Shown here: piece after piece, positions 13,058-31,795 of the stretch
Layout: each line of letters starts with the position of its first letter
Numbering within the stretch: the first letter of the stretch is position 1
Sequence record: PP274704.1
DNA: 64,000 nt
Strand: one strand, 5' to 3'
From: Escherichia phage ECp13
Notes under the pieces: generated by a model
Database searches by the model: none
What the model was told of the DNA's origin: nothing
What the model saw: the letters and a program-made list of their open reading frames with translations, nothing else
Program-made: the position numbers and the translations under genes

Positions 13058-13621
13058 ATGAGCTTATTTGAAGATGATATTCAATTAAACGAGCATCAAG
13101 TTGCTTGGTATTCAAAAGATTGGACAGCTGTCCAATCTGCTGCTGATTCTTTTAAGGAAAAAGCTGAAAATGAATTTTTTGAAATAATTGGAGCTATTAA
13201 TAATAAAACTAAATGCTCTATTGCTCAAAAAGATTATTCAAAATACATGGTTGAGAATGCATTATCACAATTTCCTGAATGCATGCCAGCTGTATATGCT
13301 ATGAATTTAATTGGATCAGGTTTAAGCGATGAAGCCCATTTTAATTATCTGATGGCTGCTGTTCCTCGTGGTAAAAGATATAGTAAATGGGCAAAACTGG
13401 TTGAAGATTCTACCGAAGTATTGATTATTAAGTTACTTGCTAAGCGGTATCAAGTTAATACAAATGATGCAATTAACTATAAATCAATTCTTACTAAAAA
13501 TGGAAAACTACCTTTAGTATTAAAAGAACTAAAAGGTTTAGTCACGGATGATTTTTTGAAAGAAGTGACTAAGAACGTAAAAGAACAGAAACAACTCAAA
13601 AAACTAGCATTGGAATGGTAA
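13058..13621 (+). CDS. 62: Clamp loader small subunit gp62
   Basis: 187 aa immediately after gp44. Confidence 0.85.
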
Positions 13622-23742: not shown

Positions 23743-24771
23743 ATGTCATCAATACCTTGGATTGATAATGAGTTTGCATACCGTGCATTAGCTCATTTAC
23801 CTAAATTCACACAAGTAAATAATAGTTCAACTTTTAAATTGCGGTTTAGATGCCCTGTTTGTGGAGATTCAAAAACCGACCAAAATAAAGCCCGTGGATG
23901 GTATTATGGTGATAATAATGAAGGAAATATTCATTGTTATAACTGCAACTATCATGCACCAATCGGAATATATTTAAAGGAGTTTGAACCTGATTTATAT
24001 CGTGAGTATATCTTTGAAATAAGAAAAGAAAAAGGTAAAAGTCGTCCAGTAGAAAAACCTAAAGAACTTCCTAAACAACCTGAGAAGAAAATAATTAAAT
24101 CTCTTCCGTCATGCATTAGATTAGATAAACTGGCGGAAGACCATCCAATTATAAAATATGTAAAAGCTCGTTGTATTCCAAAGAATAAATGGAAATATCT
24201 TTGGTTTACAACCGAATGGCCTAAATTAGTTAATAGTATAGCGCCAGGAACATATAAAAAGGAAATACCTGAGCCTCGTCTTGTTATTCCAATTTATAAT
24301 GCTAACGGAAAAGCTGAGTCTTTTCAAGGACGTGCATTAAAGAAAGATGCTCCTCAAAAATATATCACCATCAAAGCTTATCCTGAGGCAACAAAAATTT
24401 ATGGAGTTGAACGGGTTAAAGATGGTGATGTATATGTTCTAGAAGGACCTATAGATTCACTTTTTATTGAAAATGGTATAGCTATTACGGGCGGTCAATT
24501 AGACCTAGAAATTGTTCCATTTAAAGATAGACGTGTATGGGTTTTAGATAATGAACCTCGTCATCCTGACACTATTAAACGAATGACTAAATTGGTCGAT
24601 GCAGGAGAAAGGGTTATGTTTTGGGACAAATCTCCCTGGAAATCAAAAGATGTTAATGATATGATTAGAAAGGAAGGTGCAACCCCTAAACAAATTATGG
24701 AATATATGAAAAATAATATTGCCCAAGGGTTGATGGCTAAAATGCGGCTATCTAAATATGCTAAGATTTAA
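23743..24771 (+). CDS. 61: DNA primase gp61
   Basis: 342 aa; Zn ribbon CPVCGDS...CYNC; TOPRIM domain. Confidence 0.9.
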   Translation: MSSIPWIDNEFAYRALAHLPKFTQVNNSSTFKLRFRCPVCGDSKTDQNKARGWYYGDNNEGNIHCYNCNYHAPIGIYLKEFEPDLYREYIFEIRKEKGKSRPVEKPKELPKQPEKKIIKSLPSCIRLDKLAEDHPIIKYVKARCIPKNKWKYLWFTTEWPKLVNSIAPGTYKKEIPEPRLVIPIYNANGKAESFQGRALKKDAPQKYITIKAYPEATKIYGVERVKDGDVYVLEGPIDSLFIENGIAITGGQLDLEIVPFKDRRVWVLDNEPRHPDTIKRMTKLVDAGERVMFWDKSPWKSKDVNDMIRKEGATPKQIMEYMKNNIAQGLMAKMRLSKYAKI

Positions 24772-24968
24772 ATTAACCCAACTAAAGCAAATGCTAAATC
24801 TACGAATGTATCAAGAGTAATTACTGGAATATTAACGCCATGAGCAATAGCAATTGGCGATAAAACAAAATTCCAGAGTAAAATTCCTACCATAGCAGAA
24901 ATAGTAAAAGCTATACGTTTTTTATTACCTTTTATGGCATTAACAAGTGCCATTAATTTTTGTACCAT
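24768..24968 (-). CDS. Hypothetical two-helix membrane protein (66 aa) on the opposite strand
   Basis: Minus-strand ATG preceded by AAGGAGG; convergent with gene 61. Confidence 0.5.
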   Translation of the reverse strand: MVQKLMALVNAIKGNKKRIAFTISAMVGILLWNFVLSPIAIAHGVNIPVITLDTFVDLAFALVGLI

Positions 24969-24977
24969 ATGTCCTCC

Positions 24978-25006
24978 TTATTGCTTTATATATTTATTGT
25001 ATAATT
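24978..25006 (+). promoter_or_regulatory. Middle promoter: MotA box TGCTTTA, 11 nt, TATAAT
   Basis: ttaTTGCTTTAtatatttattgTATAAT upstream of gene 56. Confidence 0.5.
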
Positions 25007-25039
25007 AATCTACTAACCCATGAATTGAAAGGAAAAATA

Positions 25040-25557
25040 ATGGCTTACTTTAATGAATGTAGTCAACTGATTGAAGGCGCTGATAAAGCTCAAAATGAAT
25101 ACTGGGATATTCTCGGCGATGAAAAAGACCCGCTGCAGGTTATGCTTGATATGCAGAAATCTCTGCAGGTTCGTTTAGCTAAAGATAAACCTGAATATAA
25201 CCGTCATCCTGATGATTTGGCTACTGCAGGTGAAGTTGTTGATTGGCTGCGTAATCAGAAAGATTATATTGATGATGAATTCCGCGAACTTCTGACTTCT
25301 CTTGGTGGTATGAGCAATGGCGAAAAAGATGCATCTGCTGTATGGAAGCTTGGAAGTCGCAACACGGTGAACGTCGTGAAACTCTGATTACTGACTTATC
25401 TCCACAAGACCAGTTGGAAATTAAATTCGAAATGATTGATATTCTTCATTTCGTTCTGAACATGTTCCAAGGTCTCGGTCTTACGGCTGAAGAAATCTTT
25501 AAACTTTATTATCTGAAAAATGCTGAAAACTTCGCTCGTCAAGACCGAGGTTATTAA
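25040..25557 (+). pseudogene. 56: dCTPase/dUTPase gp56, interrupted by apparent 1-nt deletion near 25346-25350
   Basis: Frame A ends ...ASAVWK then runs to a stop at 25387; frame B resumes (E)AWKSQ...ARQDRGY; the two pieces sum to ~172 aa, the intact length. Confidence 0.6.
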
Positions 25558-25591
25558 TATAAACGACGGCTTAAAAGCTGTGAGAATTTAT

Positions 25592-25599
25592 TATAAATA
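25592..25599 (+). promoter_or_regulatory. Late promoter TATAAATA
   Basis: ttaTTATAAATAgtc about 30 nt upstream of soc. Confidence 0.55.
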
Positions 25600-25629
25600 G
25601 TCATGTAATTTAAATAAAAGGAGAATTAC

Positions 25630-25875
25630 ATGGCTAGTACTCGCGGTTATGTTAATATTAAAACATTTGAGCAGAAATTAGATGGAAATAAGAAAATTGA
25701 AGGAAAGGAAATTTCTGTAGCTTTCCCTCTTTATTCTGACGTTCACAAAATTTCTGGTGCTCATTACCAGACATTCCCTTCAGAAAAAGCAGCATATACT
25801 ACTGTATACGAAGAAAATCAACGTGATGCATGGATTGCTGCAAACGAAGATCTGTGGAAAGTAACTGGTGGTTAA
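25630..25875 (+). CDS. soc: Small outer capsid protein Soc
   Basis: 81 aa; MASTRGYVNIKTFEQKLDGNKKIEGKEISVAFPLY matches remembered T4 Soc. Confidence 0.85.
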   Translation: MASTRGYVNIKTFEQKLDGNKKIEGKEISVAFPLYSDVHKISGAHYQTFPSEKAAYTTVYEENQRDAWIAANEDLWKVTGG

Positions 25876-25882
25876 TAAATTC

Positions 25883-25910
25883 AAGGACTCCTTCGGGAGT
25901 CCTTTTTTCA
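25883..25910 (+). terminator. Intrinsic terminator GGACUCC-UUCG-GGAGUCC plus T6
   Basis: aaggactccttcgggagtcctttttt. Confidence 0.7.
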
Positions 25911-25974
25911 TTTTACCGGTTTACTTTCCAAAACAAGTATGGTATAATAAAATTATCTTATAGAGGAGAGCACT

Positions 25975-26187
25975 ATGTTAAATCGTTGGATTAAACCAAA
26001 TGAAGACCTCCAGAAGGTTCTTGATAAAGCTATCTCTGATAAATGGGGTATGAAAAGCTGGGATTGTGATATCGTCACGCATTCATTCATGATGCATGCA
26101 GATGGTTCAGTCGAGTTCAATGCTGAAATGCGATACACTGACTGGGGTGGATTTCAAAGAGTCGAATTTCAAAGAGGCTTTTTGTAA
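25975..26187 (+). CDS. Hypothetical protein (70 aa)
   Basis: ORF track; GAGGAGAG SD. Confidence 0.5.
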   Translation: MLNRWIKPNEDLQKVLDKAISDKWGMKSWDCDIVTHSFMMHADGSVEFNAEMRYTDWGGFQRVEFQRGFL

Positions 26188-26307
26188 TGTTTATCTTTAA
26201 TTGGTTTAAAAGTTTCTTTACGGATTTTTTTCTCTACAACTCCCGGAGAAGGTGTAGTTCCTATTTCAAATGACTACCTTCCTTTAACTGTAGTTGAATA
26301 TGTTTAT

Positions 26308-26526
26308 ATGGGAGATGGAACAGTAGAAGCGGTTACTATGACTTATGAAGAAGCCCAGGAATATTATAAAAATCCTTGGCGCTGGTCAACACCTACATCA
26401 TCTAATGCGCAGAATACACAGTCTAGTTCTGATTCATATGACACTAATGTTCCTGTTCATGTATGGACGGGCGATTCATGTGGAAGTTCTTGTGATTCTA
26501 GTTGTTCATCTACATCTTGTGATTGA
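26308..26526 (+). CDS. Hypothetical protein (72 aa), Ser/Cys-rich C-terminus
   Basis: ORF track; tail [18 protein letters not shown]. Confidence 0.45.
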
Positions 26527-26534
26527 GGAAAATT

Positions 26535-27020
26535 ATGGAAGCGATTTTGTTTGAAATGTATATTAGCAGTAATAGTTTGTCGTTTGCTAAAGACGTTCCA
26601 ATTACCGTAGCAGTAATGATTGATAAGGGTTATTGTGACCCAATGTATCTTGTAGAAAATTTCGTTTCAATGCCAGTTCCAGAAGATGCTGAAATAAAAC
26701 TTAAAAAGATTGGTATTATTGAAACTGTACCAAATATTCCATTTAGAGCAATTGAAGCATTTACTAAATCAGAATACATTAATGTTAGCGCAGAACAATA
26801 TAATGATAATCCTTTATCTTTCTATTCGTATGATTCAGTATATAGTTGGAAAATAGATAAAGGAAATAAATTTATAATTGCGAGTGAAGATGCTTTATCA
26901 TACTTTATTTCTTCTGTATGGAATAGTTTACATCCAAATTTGCTAAAAATTCATGAATTTGATGATGCTCCTACTGTTATTTTAGGTAAAACAAATGAAA
27001 GTTCTGAAGAAGATGCTTGA
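26535..27020 (+). CDS. Hypothetical protein (161 aa), possibly Mrh by length and position
   Basis: ATG 26535 with GAGGAAAA SD; ORF track start 26523 is TTG. Confidence 0.45.
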
Positions 27021-27198
27021 ATGGTTCAATAGACCAAACTCAATGTATATTGACGATGGTTGGGTTGAACAAGCAAATAAAGAAATGCAGAACGAATCGG
27101 AAGAATGGATGAAATCAATGATTAGTGCTGAGAAAGAAAAGAAATTAGAACGCTCAGCACTTAAATTAATGAGAGACATCTATGGGGATAAATCGTGA
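26995..27198 (+). CDS. Hypothetical protein (67 aa)
   Basis: ORF track. Confidence 0.45.
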
Positions 27199-27206
27199 AC
27201 AAAGAT

Positions 27207-27359
27207 ATGACATTAGAAGAGGCTAAAGCTAAAGCAAACGAAGCACTGGATTTGCTTCTTAAAATCGGTAGTAAAATGATGGAAGAAAATGAGAAATATA
27301 TCCAGGAAAACAAAATTCCTGACGGCCCATTAGTAGGCAAGAGGAAATCACATGATTGA
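27207..27359 (+). CDS. Hypothetical protein (50 aa)
   Basis: ATG ORF bridging the gap between flanking ORFs; below track cut-off. Confidence 0.3.
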
Positions 27360-27822
27360 AGTAGCAAAACGATATTCAATAGAATTTATGTCTAAAGAAG
27401 GTAAATCAGTAAATACACTTAATAAAAATTGCTCATTAATTATTCCTTTAGCAGAAAATCCGGATCGTTTAATTAAAGATATAAAAGAAAGAAAATATCC
27501 AGAAAATGTTATTCTAGTTATAAAGCATACTGAAGATATTTTGCATAATACAGATTCACCGTTTTCTTCTTCTGAAGCTTTAACTATTAAAGGCTATAAA
27601 AGAGCTCATGAATATAGTCTTTTTGACCTGTTTGAAGACGATAAAGTTAAATTAGCTAGTCAACCTTCTAAAAGTAAAACATTCATTATTGAAGATATTA
27701 AAGATATAAATGCATTTATTAAGATGGTCTGGGCTCATTTTGATGTTGGACTACGCTGGAGAATGTCCGAAGAAGAAAGAAAGATTATTGAAGCTAATCG
27801 TCATTTTGGTTTTTATCGCTAG
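27352..27822 (+). CDS. Hypothetical protein (156 aa)
   Basis: ORF with GAGGAAA SD; no motif recognised. Confidence 0.55.
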
Positions 27823-27830
27823 GAATTAAT

Positions 27831-28013
27831 ATGGATTTATTTGAGATGTTAGAAGATAATCATTCTACGAATATCCAGAATGATTCTAGTGATTATAAGA
27901 AAGAGTACCGTATAGTATTACAGAATTATGGAATTGAAGCCCCAGATGCTCTTCTAGAAGAACTAGCTTCATACCATCTTGACCCTCCGCCCTGGGCTCC
28001 CTGGGCAAAATAA
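27831..28013 (+). CDS. Hypothetical acidic protein (60 aa)
   Basis: ORF track. Confidence 0.45.
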   Translation: MDLFEMLEDNHSTNIQNDSSDYKKEYRIVLQNYGIEAPDALLEELASYHLDPPPWAPWAK

Positions 28014-28056
28014 TTCAAAAAGTTGTTTACTTTCCTTCCTAACAATGATATGATAG
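28014..28056 (+). promoter_or_regulatory. Early promoter (GTTTAC, 18 nt, TATGAT)
   Basis: aaagttGTTTACtttccttcctaacaatgaTATGAT. Confidence 0.5.
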
Positions 28057-28080
28057 CTTCTGAAGTATATGGAGGCTATC

Positions 28081-28704
28081 ATGATTATTAATCTCGCAGA
28101 TGTTGAACAGTTATCTATAAAAGCTGAAAGTGTCGATTTTCAATATGATATGTATAAAAAGGTCTGTGAAAAATTTACTGACTTTGAACAGTCAATTCTT
28201 TGGCAATGTATGGAAGCCAAAAAGAATGAAGCTCTTCATCGGCAGTTGAATAAAATCGTTAAAAAGCATTTAACTAAATCGCCTTATCAGCTATATCGTG
28301 GTATATCAAAATCGACAAAAGAACTCATTAAAGATTTACAAGTTGGAGAAGTGTTTTCAACGAACAGAGTAGATTCATTTACTACTAGTTTGCATACAGC
28401 ATGTGGTTTTTCTTATGTTGAATATTCCACTGAAATAATATTTCGCTTAAAAACTGATAAAGCTTTTAATTATTCTGACCATATCAGCGATATTATACTT
28501 TCTTCTCCTAATACTGAGTTTAAGTATACATATGAAGATACTGATGGATTAGATTCAGAACGTACTGATAACTTAACGATGATTGTACGTGAACAAGAAT
28601 GGATGATTCCAATTGGAAAGTATAAAATAACTTCTATTTCAAAAGAAAAATTACACGATTCATTTGGAACATTTAAAGTGTATGATATTGAGGTAGTTGA
28701 ATGA
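28081..28704 (+). CDS. modB: ADP-ribosyltransferase ModB
   Basis: 207 aa from ATG 28081 (GGAGG SD); R-S-E triad LYRG / STN / EQEWMIP. Confidence 0.75.
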   Translation: MIINLADVEQLSIKAESVDFQYDMYKKVCEKFTDFEQSILWQCMEAKKNEALHRQLNKIVKKHLTKSPYQLYRGISKSTKELIKDLQVGEVFSTNRVDSFTTSLHTACGFSYVEYSTEIIFRLKTDKAFNYSDHISDIILSSPNTEFKYTYEDTDGLDSERTDNLTMIVREQEWMIPIGKYKITSISKEKLHDSFGTFKVYDIEVVE

Positions 28705-29303
28705 AATATTCAGCAATGCAATTAAAAGATTTTAAAATCAAATCAATGGATGCATCGGTGCGTGCTTCTATTCGCGAAGAATTACTTTCTGAAGGATTTA
28801 ATTTATCCGAAATTGAACTTTTAATTCATTGTATTACTAATAAGCCAGACGATCATTCTTGGTTAAATGAAATAATCAAATCTCGTTTGGAACCAAACGA
28901 TAAACCTCTTTGGAGAGGTGTTCCAGTTGAGACTAAGCAGGTGTTAAATCAAGGAATTGATATTATTACATTTGATAAAGTAGTATCAGCTTCATATGAT
29001 AAAAATATAGCTCTACATTTTGCTTCTGGATTAGAATACAATACACAAGTTATTTTTGAATTCAAAGCTCCTATGGTATTTAATTTCCAGGAGTATGCTA
29101 TAAAAGCTCTACGTTGTAAAGAATATAGTCCGAGTTTTAAGTTTCCAGATAGCCATCGCTATCGTAATATGGAATTAGTTTCAGATGAACAAGAAGTAAT
29201 GATACCTGCTGGAAGTGTATTTAGAATTGCGGATAGATACGAGTATAAAAAGTATTCAACATACACTATCTATACTCTTGATTTTGAAGGATTTAATCTA
29301 TAA
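28701..29303 (+). CDS. modA: ADP-ribosyltransferase ModA
   Basis: 200 aa; paralog of ModB; LWRG / SAS / EQEVMIP; ATGA overlap. Confidence 0.75.
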   Translation: MKYSAMQLKDFKIKSMDASVRASIREELLSEGFNLSEIELLIHCITNKPDDHSWLNEIIKSRLEPNDKPLWRGVPVETKQVLNQGIDIITFDKVVSASYDKNIALHFASGLEYNTQVIFEFKAPMVFNFQEYAIKALRCKEYSPSFKFPDSHRYRNMELVSDEQEVMIPAGSVFRIADRYEYKKYSTYTIYTLDFEGFNL

Positions 29304-29349
29304 TGGAAGGACTTAGATTCATTATACCACGAAAGTTTTAAAGCATTTT

Positions 29350-29392
29350 TCATAAAGTTGTTTACAAACTGAAGTAAAAATGTTATAGTATA
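29350..29392 (+). promoter_or_regulatory. Early promoter (GTTTAC plus TATAGT)
   Basis: cataaagttGTTTACaaactgaagtaaaaatgtTATAGT. Confidence 0.5.
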
Positions 29393-29419
29393 AGTAGTTA
29401 ACCCGTCCGTGAGAAAAAT

Positions 29420-30166
29420 ATGAAACTGTCTAAAAATCAAATTCGTAAAATTACACGTCGTCTAGAGCATACCCAGGCATCTGCTAAAAGACGTTCTAAA
29501 GATTTTAACTTAGACTTCAATTACATTAAGAACATTTTAGATCAGAAAGTTTGCGCTTACTCAGGAGAACCTTTTGATAATCGTATTGAAGGAGAGAAAT
29601 TATCATTAGAACGTTTTGATAATAACGTTGGATACATTAAAGGGAATGTTATTGCAGTAAAGAAAAAGTACAATACATTTCGTTCTGATTATACTTTAGA
29701 AGAGTTGATTGAAAAGCGTGATTTATTTGCTTTGCGAATTGGTCGTTCATCTGCGAAAAAGGTTCATAAACTAAATTTAGATGAAAAGAAATGGGCTAAA
29801 ATCAAAAAGACTTATAATCAAATTAAAGCTATACAGAAAAAACGTGAAAACCGAATTGAACACATTTCTCAGCTTTCTAAATCAAAACAAACCTCTGACA
29901 TTAAGCTAACGATTGTAGCACTCAAAGCTCGTATTGATGGTTCTCGTATAGCAGAAGGAACTGAAGTTGTTAAATTGAACGTTCTTCTTAAAGGCTCTGA
30001 TTGGAAAACTGTGAAAAAGTTGTCAGAAGCAGAAATGCAATATGATATGTGTGATAAAATTATTCAAGGTGTAGAGCGGTATCAAAACTTGTCTTTTATT
30101 GATAAACTTAAACTGAAAAGAGGATACCCGCTAAATTGTTCAATTTTTAAACTTATCCGAGGATAA
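29420..30166 (+). CDS. srd: Srd-like protein (assigned by position)
   Basis: 248 aa basic protein between modA and dda.1. Confidence 0.5.
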   Translation: MKLSKNQIRKITRRLEHTQASAKRRSKDFNLDFNYIKNILDQKVCAYSGEPFDNRIEGEKLSLERFDNNVGYIKGNVIAVKKKYNTFRSDYTLEELIEKRDLFALRIGRSSAKKVHKLNLDEKKWAKIKKTYNQIKAIQKKRENRIEHISQLSKSKQTSDIKLTIVALKARIDGSRIAEGTEVVKLNVLLKGSDWKTVKKLSEAEMQYDMCDKIIQGVERYQNLSFIDKLKLKRGYPLNCSIFKLIRG

Positions 30167-30167
30167 T

Positions 30168-30479
30168 ATGTTTTATGTATATGCGATAGTGTATAGAGAC
30201 AAAGATGGATTTGCAGTGCCTGTTCCTCTTGATGAACATCGTCCTGCTGTATTTTTTGAAAGGGAGATTGCTGATAAAGTTTTTACAACTCTTAAAGAGC
30301 AGTATCTACTAGCTTTAGGTATGGGAATTCCTAGATTAGTTGAGACTCCACGCAAGTTTTGGTTTAATAAAATAGAAGTTAAACATGTTAAGCCTGATGT
30401 AGACACACAAAGATTATATCGGCGAATTTTAGATACTGGGCGTATTGTTAGTATACCAATTGCAGGGAATTTACGATGA
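30168..30479 (+). CDS. Hypothetical protein (103 aa), dda.1 position
   Basis: ORF track; coupled to dda. Confidence 0.55.
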   Translation: MFYVYAIVYRDKDGFAVPVPLDEHRPAVFFEREIADKVFTTLKEQYLLALGMGIPRLVETPRKFWFNKIEVKHVKPDVDTQRLYRRILDTGRIVSIPIAGNLR

Positions 30480-31795
30480 CATTTGATGATTTGACAGAAG
30501 GCCAGAAAAATGCCTTTAACATCGTTATGAGGGCTATTAAAGAAAAGAAACATCATGTAACTATTAATGGACCTGCTGGTACTGGTAAGACTACTCTTAC
30601 TAAGTTCATCATTGAAGCCTTAATATCTACGGGCGAAACTGGCATTATTTTAGCAGCTCCTACTCATGCAGCTAAAAAGATTCTTTCAAAACTGTCAGGG
30701 AAAGAAGCGAGTACTATTCACAGTATTCTCAAAATTAACCCGGTAACATATGAAGAAAACGTTCTTTTTGAACAAAAAGAAGTACCGGATTTAGCTAAAT
30801 GTAGAGTATTAATCTGCGACGAAGTGTCAATGTATGATAGAAAGCTATTTAAAATTCTGCTTTCAACTATCCCGCCGTGGTGTACTATAATTGGAATAGG
30901 CGATAATAAGCAAATTAGACCTGTTGACCCAGGAGAAAACACCGCTTATATCAGTCCGTTCTTTACACATAAAGATTTTTATCAGTGTGAACTCACTGAA
31001 GTTAAACGCAGTAATGCTCCTATTATTGATGTAGCTACTGATGTTCGCAACGGTAAGTGGATTTATGATAAAGTTGTTGACGGGCATGGAGTACGTGGAT
31101 TTACTGGTGATACCGCTTTACGTGATTTTATGGTAAATTATTTTTCAATCGTAAAATCACTAGACGATTTGTTTGAAAATCGCGTAATGGCATTTACGAA
31201 TAAATCTGTTGATAAGTTAAATAGCATTATTCGCAAAAAGATTTTTGAAACTGATAAAGATTTTATCGTTGGTGAAATTATTGTAATGCAGGAACCATTA
31301 ATTAAAACATATAAAATTGATGGAAAGCCTGTGTCAGAAATTATTTTTAATAACGGACAATTAGTTCGTATTATAGAAGCAGAGTATACATCAACATTTG
31401 TTAAAGCTCGTGGTGTTTCTGGAGAATATCTAATTCGTCATTGGGATTTAACGGTAGAAACTTACGGCGATGATGAATATTATCGTGAAAAGATTAAAAT
31501 AATTTCATCTGATGAAGAGCTGTATAAGTTTAACTTATTTTTAGGTAAAACGGCAGAAACGTATAAAAATTGGAATAAAGGTGGAAAAGCTCCGTGGAGT
31601 GATTTTTGGGATGCTAAATCACAGTTTAGTAAAGTGAAAGCACTTCCTGCATCAACATTCCATAAAGCTCAGGGCATGTCTGTAGACCGTGCTTTCATCT
31701 ATACACCTTGTATTCATTATGCAGATGCTGAATTGGCTCAGCAGCTTCTTTATGTTGGTGTCACTCGTGGTCGTTATGATGTGTTTTATGTGTGA
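30476..31795 (+). CDS. dda: DNA helicase Dda (SF1B)
   Basis: 439 aa; Walker A GPAGTGKTT; close match to remembered T4 Dda. Confidence 0.9.
   Translation: MTFDDLTEGQKNAFNIVMRAIKEKKHHVTINGPAGTGKTTLTKFIIEALISTGETGIILAAPTHAAKKILSKLSGKEASTIHSILKINPVTYEENVLFEQKEVPDLAKCRVLICDEVSMYDRKLFKILLSTIPPWCTIIGIGDNKQIRPVDPGENTAYISPFFTHKDFYQCELTEVKRSNAPIIDVATDVRNGKWIYDKVVDGHGVRGFTGDTALRDFMVNYFSIVKSLDDLFENRVMAFTNKSVDKLNSIIRKKIFETDKDFIVGEIIVMQEPLIKTYKIDGKPVSEIIFNNGQLVRIIEAEYTSTFVKARGVSGEYLIRHWDLTVETYGDDEYYREKIKIISSDEELYKFNLFLGKTAETYKNWNKGGKAPWSDFWDAKSQFSKVKALPASTFHKAQGMSVDRAFIYTPCIHYADAELAQQLLYVGVTRGRYDVFYV

Follow-up and report, generated by a model that had tools for sequence, protein, structure and literature searches.

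Three short genes upstream of modB in Escherichia phage ECp13 as orthologues of the T4 early genes modA.4, modA.3 and modA.2

Three consecutive open reading frames upstream of the ADP-ribosyltransferase gene modB in Escherichia phage ECp13 are, with a probability of about 98%, orthologues of the catalogued T4 early genes modA.4, modA.3 and modA.2. The window analysed here is a stretch of 64,000 nucleotides from sequence record PP274704.1, a segment of a Tequatrovirus (T4-like) genome lying in the direction of early transcription. Identity and synteny of the block were established from the DNA identity, from the T4 annotation, in which the same order and lengths are found, and from protein alignments. 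Positions 26500-28750 are 98.6% identical to Shigella phage KNP5 and are matched at 80-99% by more than 500 records of T4-like phages. All three proteins have the same lengths as their T4 counterparts and could be aligned with them from end to end without any indel (Table 1). According to the list of open reading frames and the annotations of T4 and KNP5, the gene order is primase 61, 56, soc, mrh.2, mrh.1, mrh, srh, the three reading frames, modB, modA, srd, dda.1 and dda; the slot between srh and modB within the 61-to-dda early region is the same as in T4 and KNP5.

A sequence-only reading of the window had been unable to place the three frames in the T4 gene list. They can be placed there by 98, 92 and 98% identity, respectively, together with the same lengths, order and neighbours. 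That reading had also named what would speak against it, namely a T4 homologue in syntenic position whose function is known; homologues do sit at this position, but none of them has a known function. Orthologues of the three genes occur in about 590-990 phage records, and searches of the literature for modA.2, modA.3, modA.4 or their UniProt accessions turned up no phage paper that names them in its main text. The identity of the block is already known, and the find is real but ordinary.

Table 1. Features of the modA.4-modA.3-modA.2 region in the ECp13 window
Feature	Coordinates	Strand	Basis and remarks
soc	25630-25875		ORF list and T4/KNP5 annotation
soc terminator	25883-25904		directly before the promoter-like site at 25920-25948
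Early-promoter-like site, TTTACT-17-TATAAT with TG	25920..25948	+	consensus scan and sequence
mrh, modA.3 paralogue in the same transcription unit	26535..27020	+	PF24070 at 8.2e-42; T4 annotation
srh, directly upstream of modA.4	26995..27198	+	phrog_2441 at 6.4e-41; T4 annotation
modA.4 orthologue	27195..27359	+	54 aa; 98% versus T4 NP_049639 (P39426); phrog_2681 at 1.7e-37
modA.3 orthologue	27352..27822	+	156 aa; 92% versus T4 NP_049638 (P39425)
modA.2 orthologue	27831..28013	+	60 aa; 98% versus T4 NP_049637 (P39424); phrog_1647 at 2.4e-31
Promoter-like site for modB/modA, TTTACT-17-TATGAT with TG	28026..28054	+	directly after the modA.2 stop
modB	28081-28704	+	ADP-ribosyltransferase; phrog_832 match
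modA	28701-29303	+	ADP-ribosyltransferase; phrog_832 match

Gene boundaries, transcription and annotation

The block had been described as three consecutive frames of 50, 156 and 60 codons upstream of modB, all with good ribosome binding sites. The longer two stand as described: modA.3, whose first 8 nt are shared with the end of modA.4, starts with an ATG 6-7 nt downstream of GAGGA, and the ATG of modA.2 follows AGGA at a distance of 6 nt. The first frame had been delimited wrongly, as no Shine-Dalgarno sequence precedes its supposed start at ATG 27207. The true reading frame has 54 codons and begins 12 nt farther upstream with GTG 27195, which overlaps the stop codon of srh (GTGA) and has GGGG 7 nt upstream. 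Among nine Tequatrovirus copies of modA.4, the start codon is either ATG or GTG at the identical site. In T4, modA.4 is annotated with 165 bp, and the guide-RNA sequences designed against it place an ATG at this position (PMC11879866, supplement). The corrected start of modA.4 is a by-product of this analysis.

The direct upstream neighbour of the block, previously taken to be an mrh-like gene, is srh, and mrh itself lies one gene farther upstream. From mrh to modA.2, the five genes follow one another with overlaps or with gaps of 8 nt at most. The early-promoter-like site behind the soc terminator is, judged by its sequence, the probable start of the transcription unit from mrh.2 to modA.2, and a consensus scan found no strong promoter or terminator on the plus strand between this site and position 28013. 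The overlaps and short gaps, together with the promoter-like sites on either side, identify the three frames as the tail of the upstream early unit: modA.4, modA.3 and modA.2 are the last three cistrons of a packed unit comprising mrh.2, mrh.1, mrh, srh, modA.4, modA.3 and modA.2. They are not co-transcribed with modB and modA from the proximal promoter. The block had been said to sit immediately upstream of the modB/modA pair; 67 nt containing the promoter-like site separate modA.2 from modB, which starts at 28081 and not at 28069. Nearly all genera have a -35-like element, GTTTAC, behind the stop codon of ModA.2.

At the start of modB, a predicted hairpin (28044-28089; about 18 bp, -19.3 kcal/mol, z = -2.2) pairs the Shine-Dalgarno sequence and the AUG (28081) with a 5' arm that overlaps the -10 element of the proximal promoter (28049-28054). 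Transcripts reading through from modA.2 are predicted to have the modB start masked by the hairpin, and transcripts from the proximal promoter would be without the 5' arm. An Rfam scan of 24000-31000 detected no RNA element and returned one sub-threshold match elsewhere.

Several differences from T4 or KNP5 were observed upstream of the block. Gene 56, encoding a dCTPase essential in T4, occupies 24947-25557, where a 1-nt deletion near 25348 relative to KNP5 (GGAAG-CTTGG versus GGAAACCTTGG) breaks it into two frames that overlap (24947-25387 and 25342-25557); the deletion is a true frameshift or else an error of sequencing or assembly. An extra T near 26225 (7 T versus 6 T in KNP5) truncates mrh.1 (26187-26526) to a 72-codon frame at 26308-26526, compared with about 112 codons in T4 and KNP5; this indel is possibly a homopolymer error or phase-type variation. 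The interval from primase 61 to soc (24771-25630) holds a 66-codon minus-strand frame (24768-24968) and gene 56, as in KNP5, and is without dam and the homing endonuclease gene segF, both of which are present there in T4.

Within Tequatrovirus, the mean pairwise dN/dS is 0.09 for modA.4, 0.32 for modA.3 and 0.13 for modA.2, which is comparable to the values for their neighbours modB (0.10) and mrh (0.36). In T4, all three RNAs are classed as early, and all three proteins have been detected by mass spectrometry, ModA.3 and ModA.4 being assigned to the 'middle' and ModA.2 to the 'late' protein class (Wolfram-Schauerte et al., 2022; PMC9697503, supplementary tables). The three genes are dispensable in laboratory hosts. 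All three were scored 'Not Fit', that is, without a fitness cost, upon knock-down by CRISPRi-ART, in a table that labels ModA.2 and ModA.4 'Unknown' and ModA.3 'Ambiguous' (PMC11879866, supplement), and delta12, a deletion (map 16,280 to 3,778) with which T4 remains viable, takes out all of them (PMC6070864). The finding itself is of little weight, as three catalogued T4 reading frames that laboratory hosts do not require have been met again.

In many GenBank and RefSeq records, orthologues of modA.2, modA.3 and modA.4 carry the label 'molybdenum ABC transporter (periplasmic molybdenum-binding protein ModA)', which stems from the gene name shared with bacterial modA/modB and has spread into the names of UniRef clusters. 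We rejected a molybdate transporter for these proteins of 54, 156 and 60 aa, for which neither Pfam nor NCBIfam gave such a match at E up to 0.1. Flagging this widely propagated misannotation is a further by-product.

The Mrh family and its pairing with ModA.2

The earlier statement that no motif could be recognised does not hold for the middle frame, as ModA.3 clearly belongs to the Mrh family. It matches Pfam PF24070 (T4 MRH-like) at 4.3e-38 over positions 1-143 of the 144-position model, scoring 130.8 bits where the cut-off is 24.4, and phrog_1234 at 1.7e-51. The full-length match to PF24070 and the membership in phrog_1234 make ModA.3 a paralogue of Mrh, to which it is about 20-26% identical. 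In an alignment of 11 sequences, including representatives down to 16-34% identity, Pro50, Ser69-Pro70-Phe71, Tyr82 and Trp127 (ModA.3 numbering) are conserved throughout the family, invariant or nearly so. These residues look structural rather than catalytic.

The AF2 model of ModA.3, built from the 11-sequence alignment, shows an alpha+beta fold at moderate quality (pLDDT 77.7). Of the sensitive profile and structure-based searches that had been suggested, the former placed the middle frame in the Mrh family, and comparison of the predicted fold with the PDB yielded no solved structure alike. PDB sequence searches with each of the three proteins and with the Mrh-family profile gave nothing credible. 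The Mrh family is narrow, since an exhaustive HMMER search of 1.84 billion representatives with the ModA.3 and Mrh profile found only 14 proteins. A rough neighbour-joining tree divides it into a ModA.3-like and a Mrh-like clade; both occur together in Tequatrovirus only, and elsewhere a single copy, belonging to either clade, adjoins ModA.2.

ModA.2 and ModA.4 match only phage families of unknown function (PHROGs). In ModA.2 of ECp13, the N-terminal MDLFEM is followed by an acidic linker, then by a short segment of helix and the C-terminal DPPPWAPWAK. The protein has both motifs of its family, D[LI]F[DEN][ML][FL] at the N-terminus and PPW[AS]PW followed by 1-3 residues at the C-terminus, which are kept even in the most divergent relatives. 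The relatives collected in the precomputed Pfam entry PF26838 are all standalone proteins (70 of 70) of 41-73 aa from T4-like phages. The IMG/VR loci described below were fetched by the pattern DPPPW[AS]PW, which makes the invariance of the motif in those loci partly a matter of construction; PPW[AS]PW is also kept in independent tblastn and profile matches. All four proline codons are in use in the motif, and serine switches between TCN and AGT. This synonymous variation indicates selection on the peptide and not on the nucleic acid, and a role of the GC-rich end of modA.2 as a nucleic-acid element was rejected as the codons vary freely.

The N-terminal half of ModA.4 is helical, and its C-terminus is basic (GKRKSHD). 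The presence/absence survey across T4-like phages that had been proposed was carried out by tblastn and found ModA.2 in 993 phage records and Mod-type ADP-ribosyltransferases (ARTs) in 1013, with nearly identical genus breakdowns. Relatives of ModA.4 were found in 587 records and in several, not all, genera of Tevenvirinae; in several genera they immediately precede the Mrh-family gene, and in others they are undetectable. In Mosigvirus, a ModA.4-like frame lies downstream of ModA.2 (L007, 2650-2841; L038, 4150-4341). Another locus, L037 (3608-4183), has a ModA.4-like frame directly before ModA.2 and no detectable Mrh-family gene.

We compared annotated genomes of Jiaoda-, Teguna-, Gapriver-, Kagamiyama- and Mosigvirus (n=5) and IMG/VR loci (n=36). 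The common order is the Mrh-family gene, ModA.2, one or more ART genes, srd, dda.1 and dda. The Mrh-family gene is located directly upstream of ModA.2 in 41 of the 42 ModA.2-bearing loci, the exception being L037. The junction between the two genes is a 1-nt overlap (TAATG or TGATG) in 24 cases and ATGA in 3; in 3 further cases a probable TTG start overlaps the stop codon (TTGA). Tequatrovirus has an 8-nt gap holding a Shine-Dalgarno sequence, the remaining junctions, as in Mosigvirus, measure about 2 nt, and L036 shows a 58-nt overlap, possibly reflecting another start or a frameshift.

These gene arrangements show that, almost always, the Mrh-family gene and modA.2 are a conserved, translationally coupled pair beside the Mod ARTs of enterobacterial Tevenvirinae, located just before the promoter of the ART genes. 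Tight coupling of genes is common throughout the T4 early units and is by itself no proof of interaction. We know of no published mechanism for Mrh itself, a question that has stood since 1990. The pair offers a concrete and testable starting point for it and is the one point of this analysis worth passing to an experimentalist.

Possible functions of the three proteins

None of the three resembles an enzyme. Comparison with enzyme families and folds in Pfam, PHROGs, the PDB, NCBIfam and PADLOC gave no match, the NCBIfam and PADLOC searches returning noise only, and nothing points to catalysis. We tentatively favour a non-enzymatic protein-binding module of ModA.3 plus ModA.2, a reading to which we assign somewhat less than an even chance. 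ModA.3 and ModA.2 would be synthesised at a constant ratio and act as a single complex, as suggested by the Mrh-family gene that outside Tequatrovirus is present singly and is almost always joined stop-to-start to ModA.2. The Mrh-type subunit would form the body, possibly oligomeric like recombinant Mrh, and ModA.2 would supply the docking peptides in the form of its two terminal short linear motifs. ModA.4, with 54 residues comprising a helix and a basic tail, might join them facultatively as a third protein.

During early takeover, this complex would bind and modulate some component of transcription or of the heat-shock system, with an effect that might matter only in particular conditions or hosts. 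This choice of target is doubtful and is drawn by analogy from the paralogue: Mrh, linked to T4 late gene expression and sigma-32 of the host, is the only functional anchor by which the module could be placed on a transcription/heat-shock axis. Mrh has an effect on late transcription of T4 both upon heat shock and in rpoH mutants (PMC6070864), and the recombinant protein forms a very large (megadalton) assembly (PMC8076793). Against the proposed module, the phenotype of Mrh belongs to a paralogue with only the low identity given above, ModA.2 of L037 occurs without a Mrh-family gene, and the ModA.4-like gene of Mosigvirus follows ModA.2. The suggestion that the three genes are candidates for host-interaction factors fits their early transcription, their dispensability and their near one-to-one co-occurrence with the Mod ARTs, and candidates they remain.

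A more specific version of the module is a long shot. The Mrh-family protein and ModA.2 would form an obligate module, in which the N-terminal DLF[DE]MF of ModA.2 would occupy the pocket of the phage sliding clamp gp45 used by the polymerase, gp55 and gp33, and PPWxPW would hold a partner or host protein. If true, the Mrh family would gain a direct handle on clamp-dependent late transcription, and the inhibition of late genes by Mrh in sigma-32-deficient hosts would be explained mechanistically. With a position matrix trained on polymerase tails alone, 16,185 positions were scored in the proteins of the window; the loop SLFDLFE of ModA.3 took rank 4, the known gp55 tail rank 12 and the N-terminus of ModA.2 only rank 80, and some internal stretches of Dda and gp41 equal the score of the ModA.3 loop. 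No covariation of the ModA.2 motif with the polymerase tail of the same genome was found. As a putative mimic of clamp-binding tails, ModA.2 is a weak lead.

Three segments of similar sequence were observed in the window, the resemblance being perhaps fortuitous in Dda and gp62. Residues 89-95 of ModA.3 (27616-27636), in a low-confidence loop, read SLFDLFE here and GLFDMFE in T4, and this segment is found in Tequatrovirus ModA.3 only. Residues 228-234 of Dda (31157-31177) form the internal SLDDLFE, which ranked 2nd in the clamp-tail matrix. The N-terminus of gp62 (13058-13090), MSLFEDD, is similar to MSMFDE of Mosigvirus ModA.2.

Being early, small and dispensable in K-12/B laboratory hosts, and confined to one phage group with a patchy distribution of ModA.4, the three proteins might alternatively be counter-defence (anti-immunity) proteins or decoys, relevant only in hosts with a particular defence system. 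We regard this as unlikely. The pair is fixed at one syntenic position in many genera and does not lie in a variable accessory island; PADLOC, Pfam, NCBIfam and the PDB gave no similarity pointing to defence, and no paper linking the three genes to defence was found in the literature searched.

It is quite unlikely, in our estimation, that the three proteins are accessory partners of ModB/ModA, acting as a specificity factor, timing brake or antidote for ADP-ribosylation. Such a role would be in line with the position of the Mrh-family/ModA.2 pair, which in every locus examined is followed directly by one or two Mod-type ART genes, with the matching genus breakdowns of ModA.2 and Mod-type ARTs, and with the report that modA impairs the growth of E. 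coli when expressed alone (PMC6070864). However, the ART genes are served by a promoter of their own, which in nearly all genera comes straight after the stop codon of ModA.2, and the start of modB would be masked by the hairpin whenever transcription reads through; together these argue for separate expression of the two units. The co-occurrence may reflect only shared descent within enterobacterial Tevenvirinae. The Mod/Alt ADP-ribosyltransferase family phrog_832 is matched by modB and modA and by none of the three frames. Furthermore, recombinant ModA and ModB are active without the products of modA.2-modA.4, which counts against a partnership.

D-PPP-W is a strong EF-P-dependent stalling context. 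ModA.2 could thus be imagined as a cis-acting ribosome-arrest peptide, in which D-PPP-W slows ribosomes 8 codons before the stop and tunes the fate of the mRNA or downstream expression. The invariance of PPW[AS]PW under selection on the peptide, with freely varying codons, would agree with this, as would the 'early RNA, late protein' behaviour of T4 ModA.2, unlike that of ModA.3 and ModA.4. Nevertheless, we consider arrest highly improbable. The N-terminal motif and the central helix, needless for arrest, are also conserved, and the ModA.2 protein accumulates in infected cells. The stop codon lies 67 nt before modB with a promoter between, and the modB hairpin begins more than 30 nt past the stop, beyond the reach of a ribosome stalled upstream. 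A function of ModA.2 as a leader peptide of modB was down-weighted on this geometry.

The notion that the frames are chance reading frames or decaying remnants, which their shortness and the missing or wrong function-based annotation in most records might suggest, is already refuted by purifying selection, conservation across genera and detection of the T4 proteins.

Comparison with known systems

The closest known counterparts are modA.2, modA.3 and modA.4 of T4, which have the same lengths, order and neighbours and differ from the ECp13 copies by point substitutions only; the start codon of modA.4 is GTG in the window and ATG in T4. The bacterial molybdate transporter ModA/ModB has the gene names alone in common with the phage genes, without similarity in sequence, size or domains. 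In its arrangement, the predicted modB hairpin is similar to cases among other T4 genes in which translation is known to be controlled in a promoter-dependent manner.

The clamp-binding tails of gp43, gp55 and gp33 in the T4 family are short acidic-hydrophobic terminal peptides, as are the N-termini of ModA.2 (DLFDMF, NIFDMF, DLFEML), which resemble the polymerase tails of this phage group. The gp43 tails read SLDFLFG in the window, SLFDMFDF in the Mosigvirus type and SLEDMFDF or SLDNMFDF in others. The motif is C-terminal in the gp43 and gp55 tails, whereas it is N-terminal in ModA.2.

T4 Mrh shares with ModA.3 the conserved Pro, SPF, Tyr and Trp positions as well as the early transcription unit. 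ModA.3 is without the insertions of Mrh and without its acidic C-terminal tail, and inhibition of late genes in rpoH hosts and the megadalton assembly are features known for T4 Mrh only and not for ModA.3.
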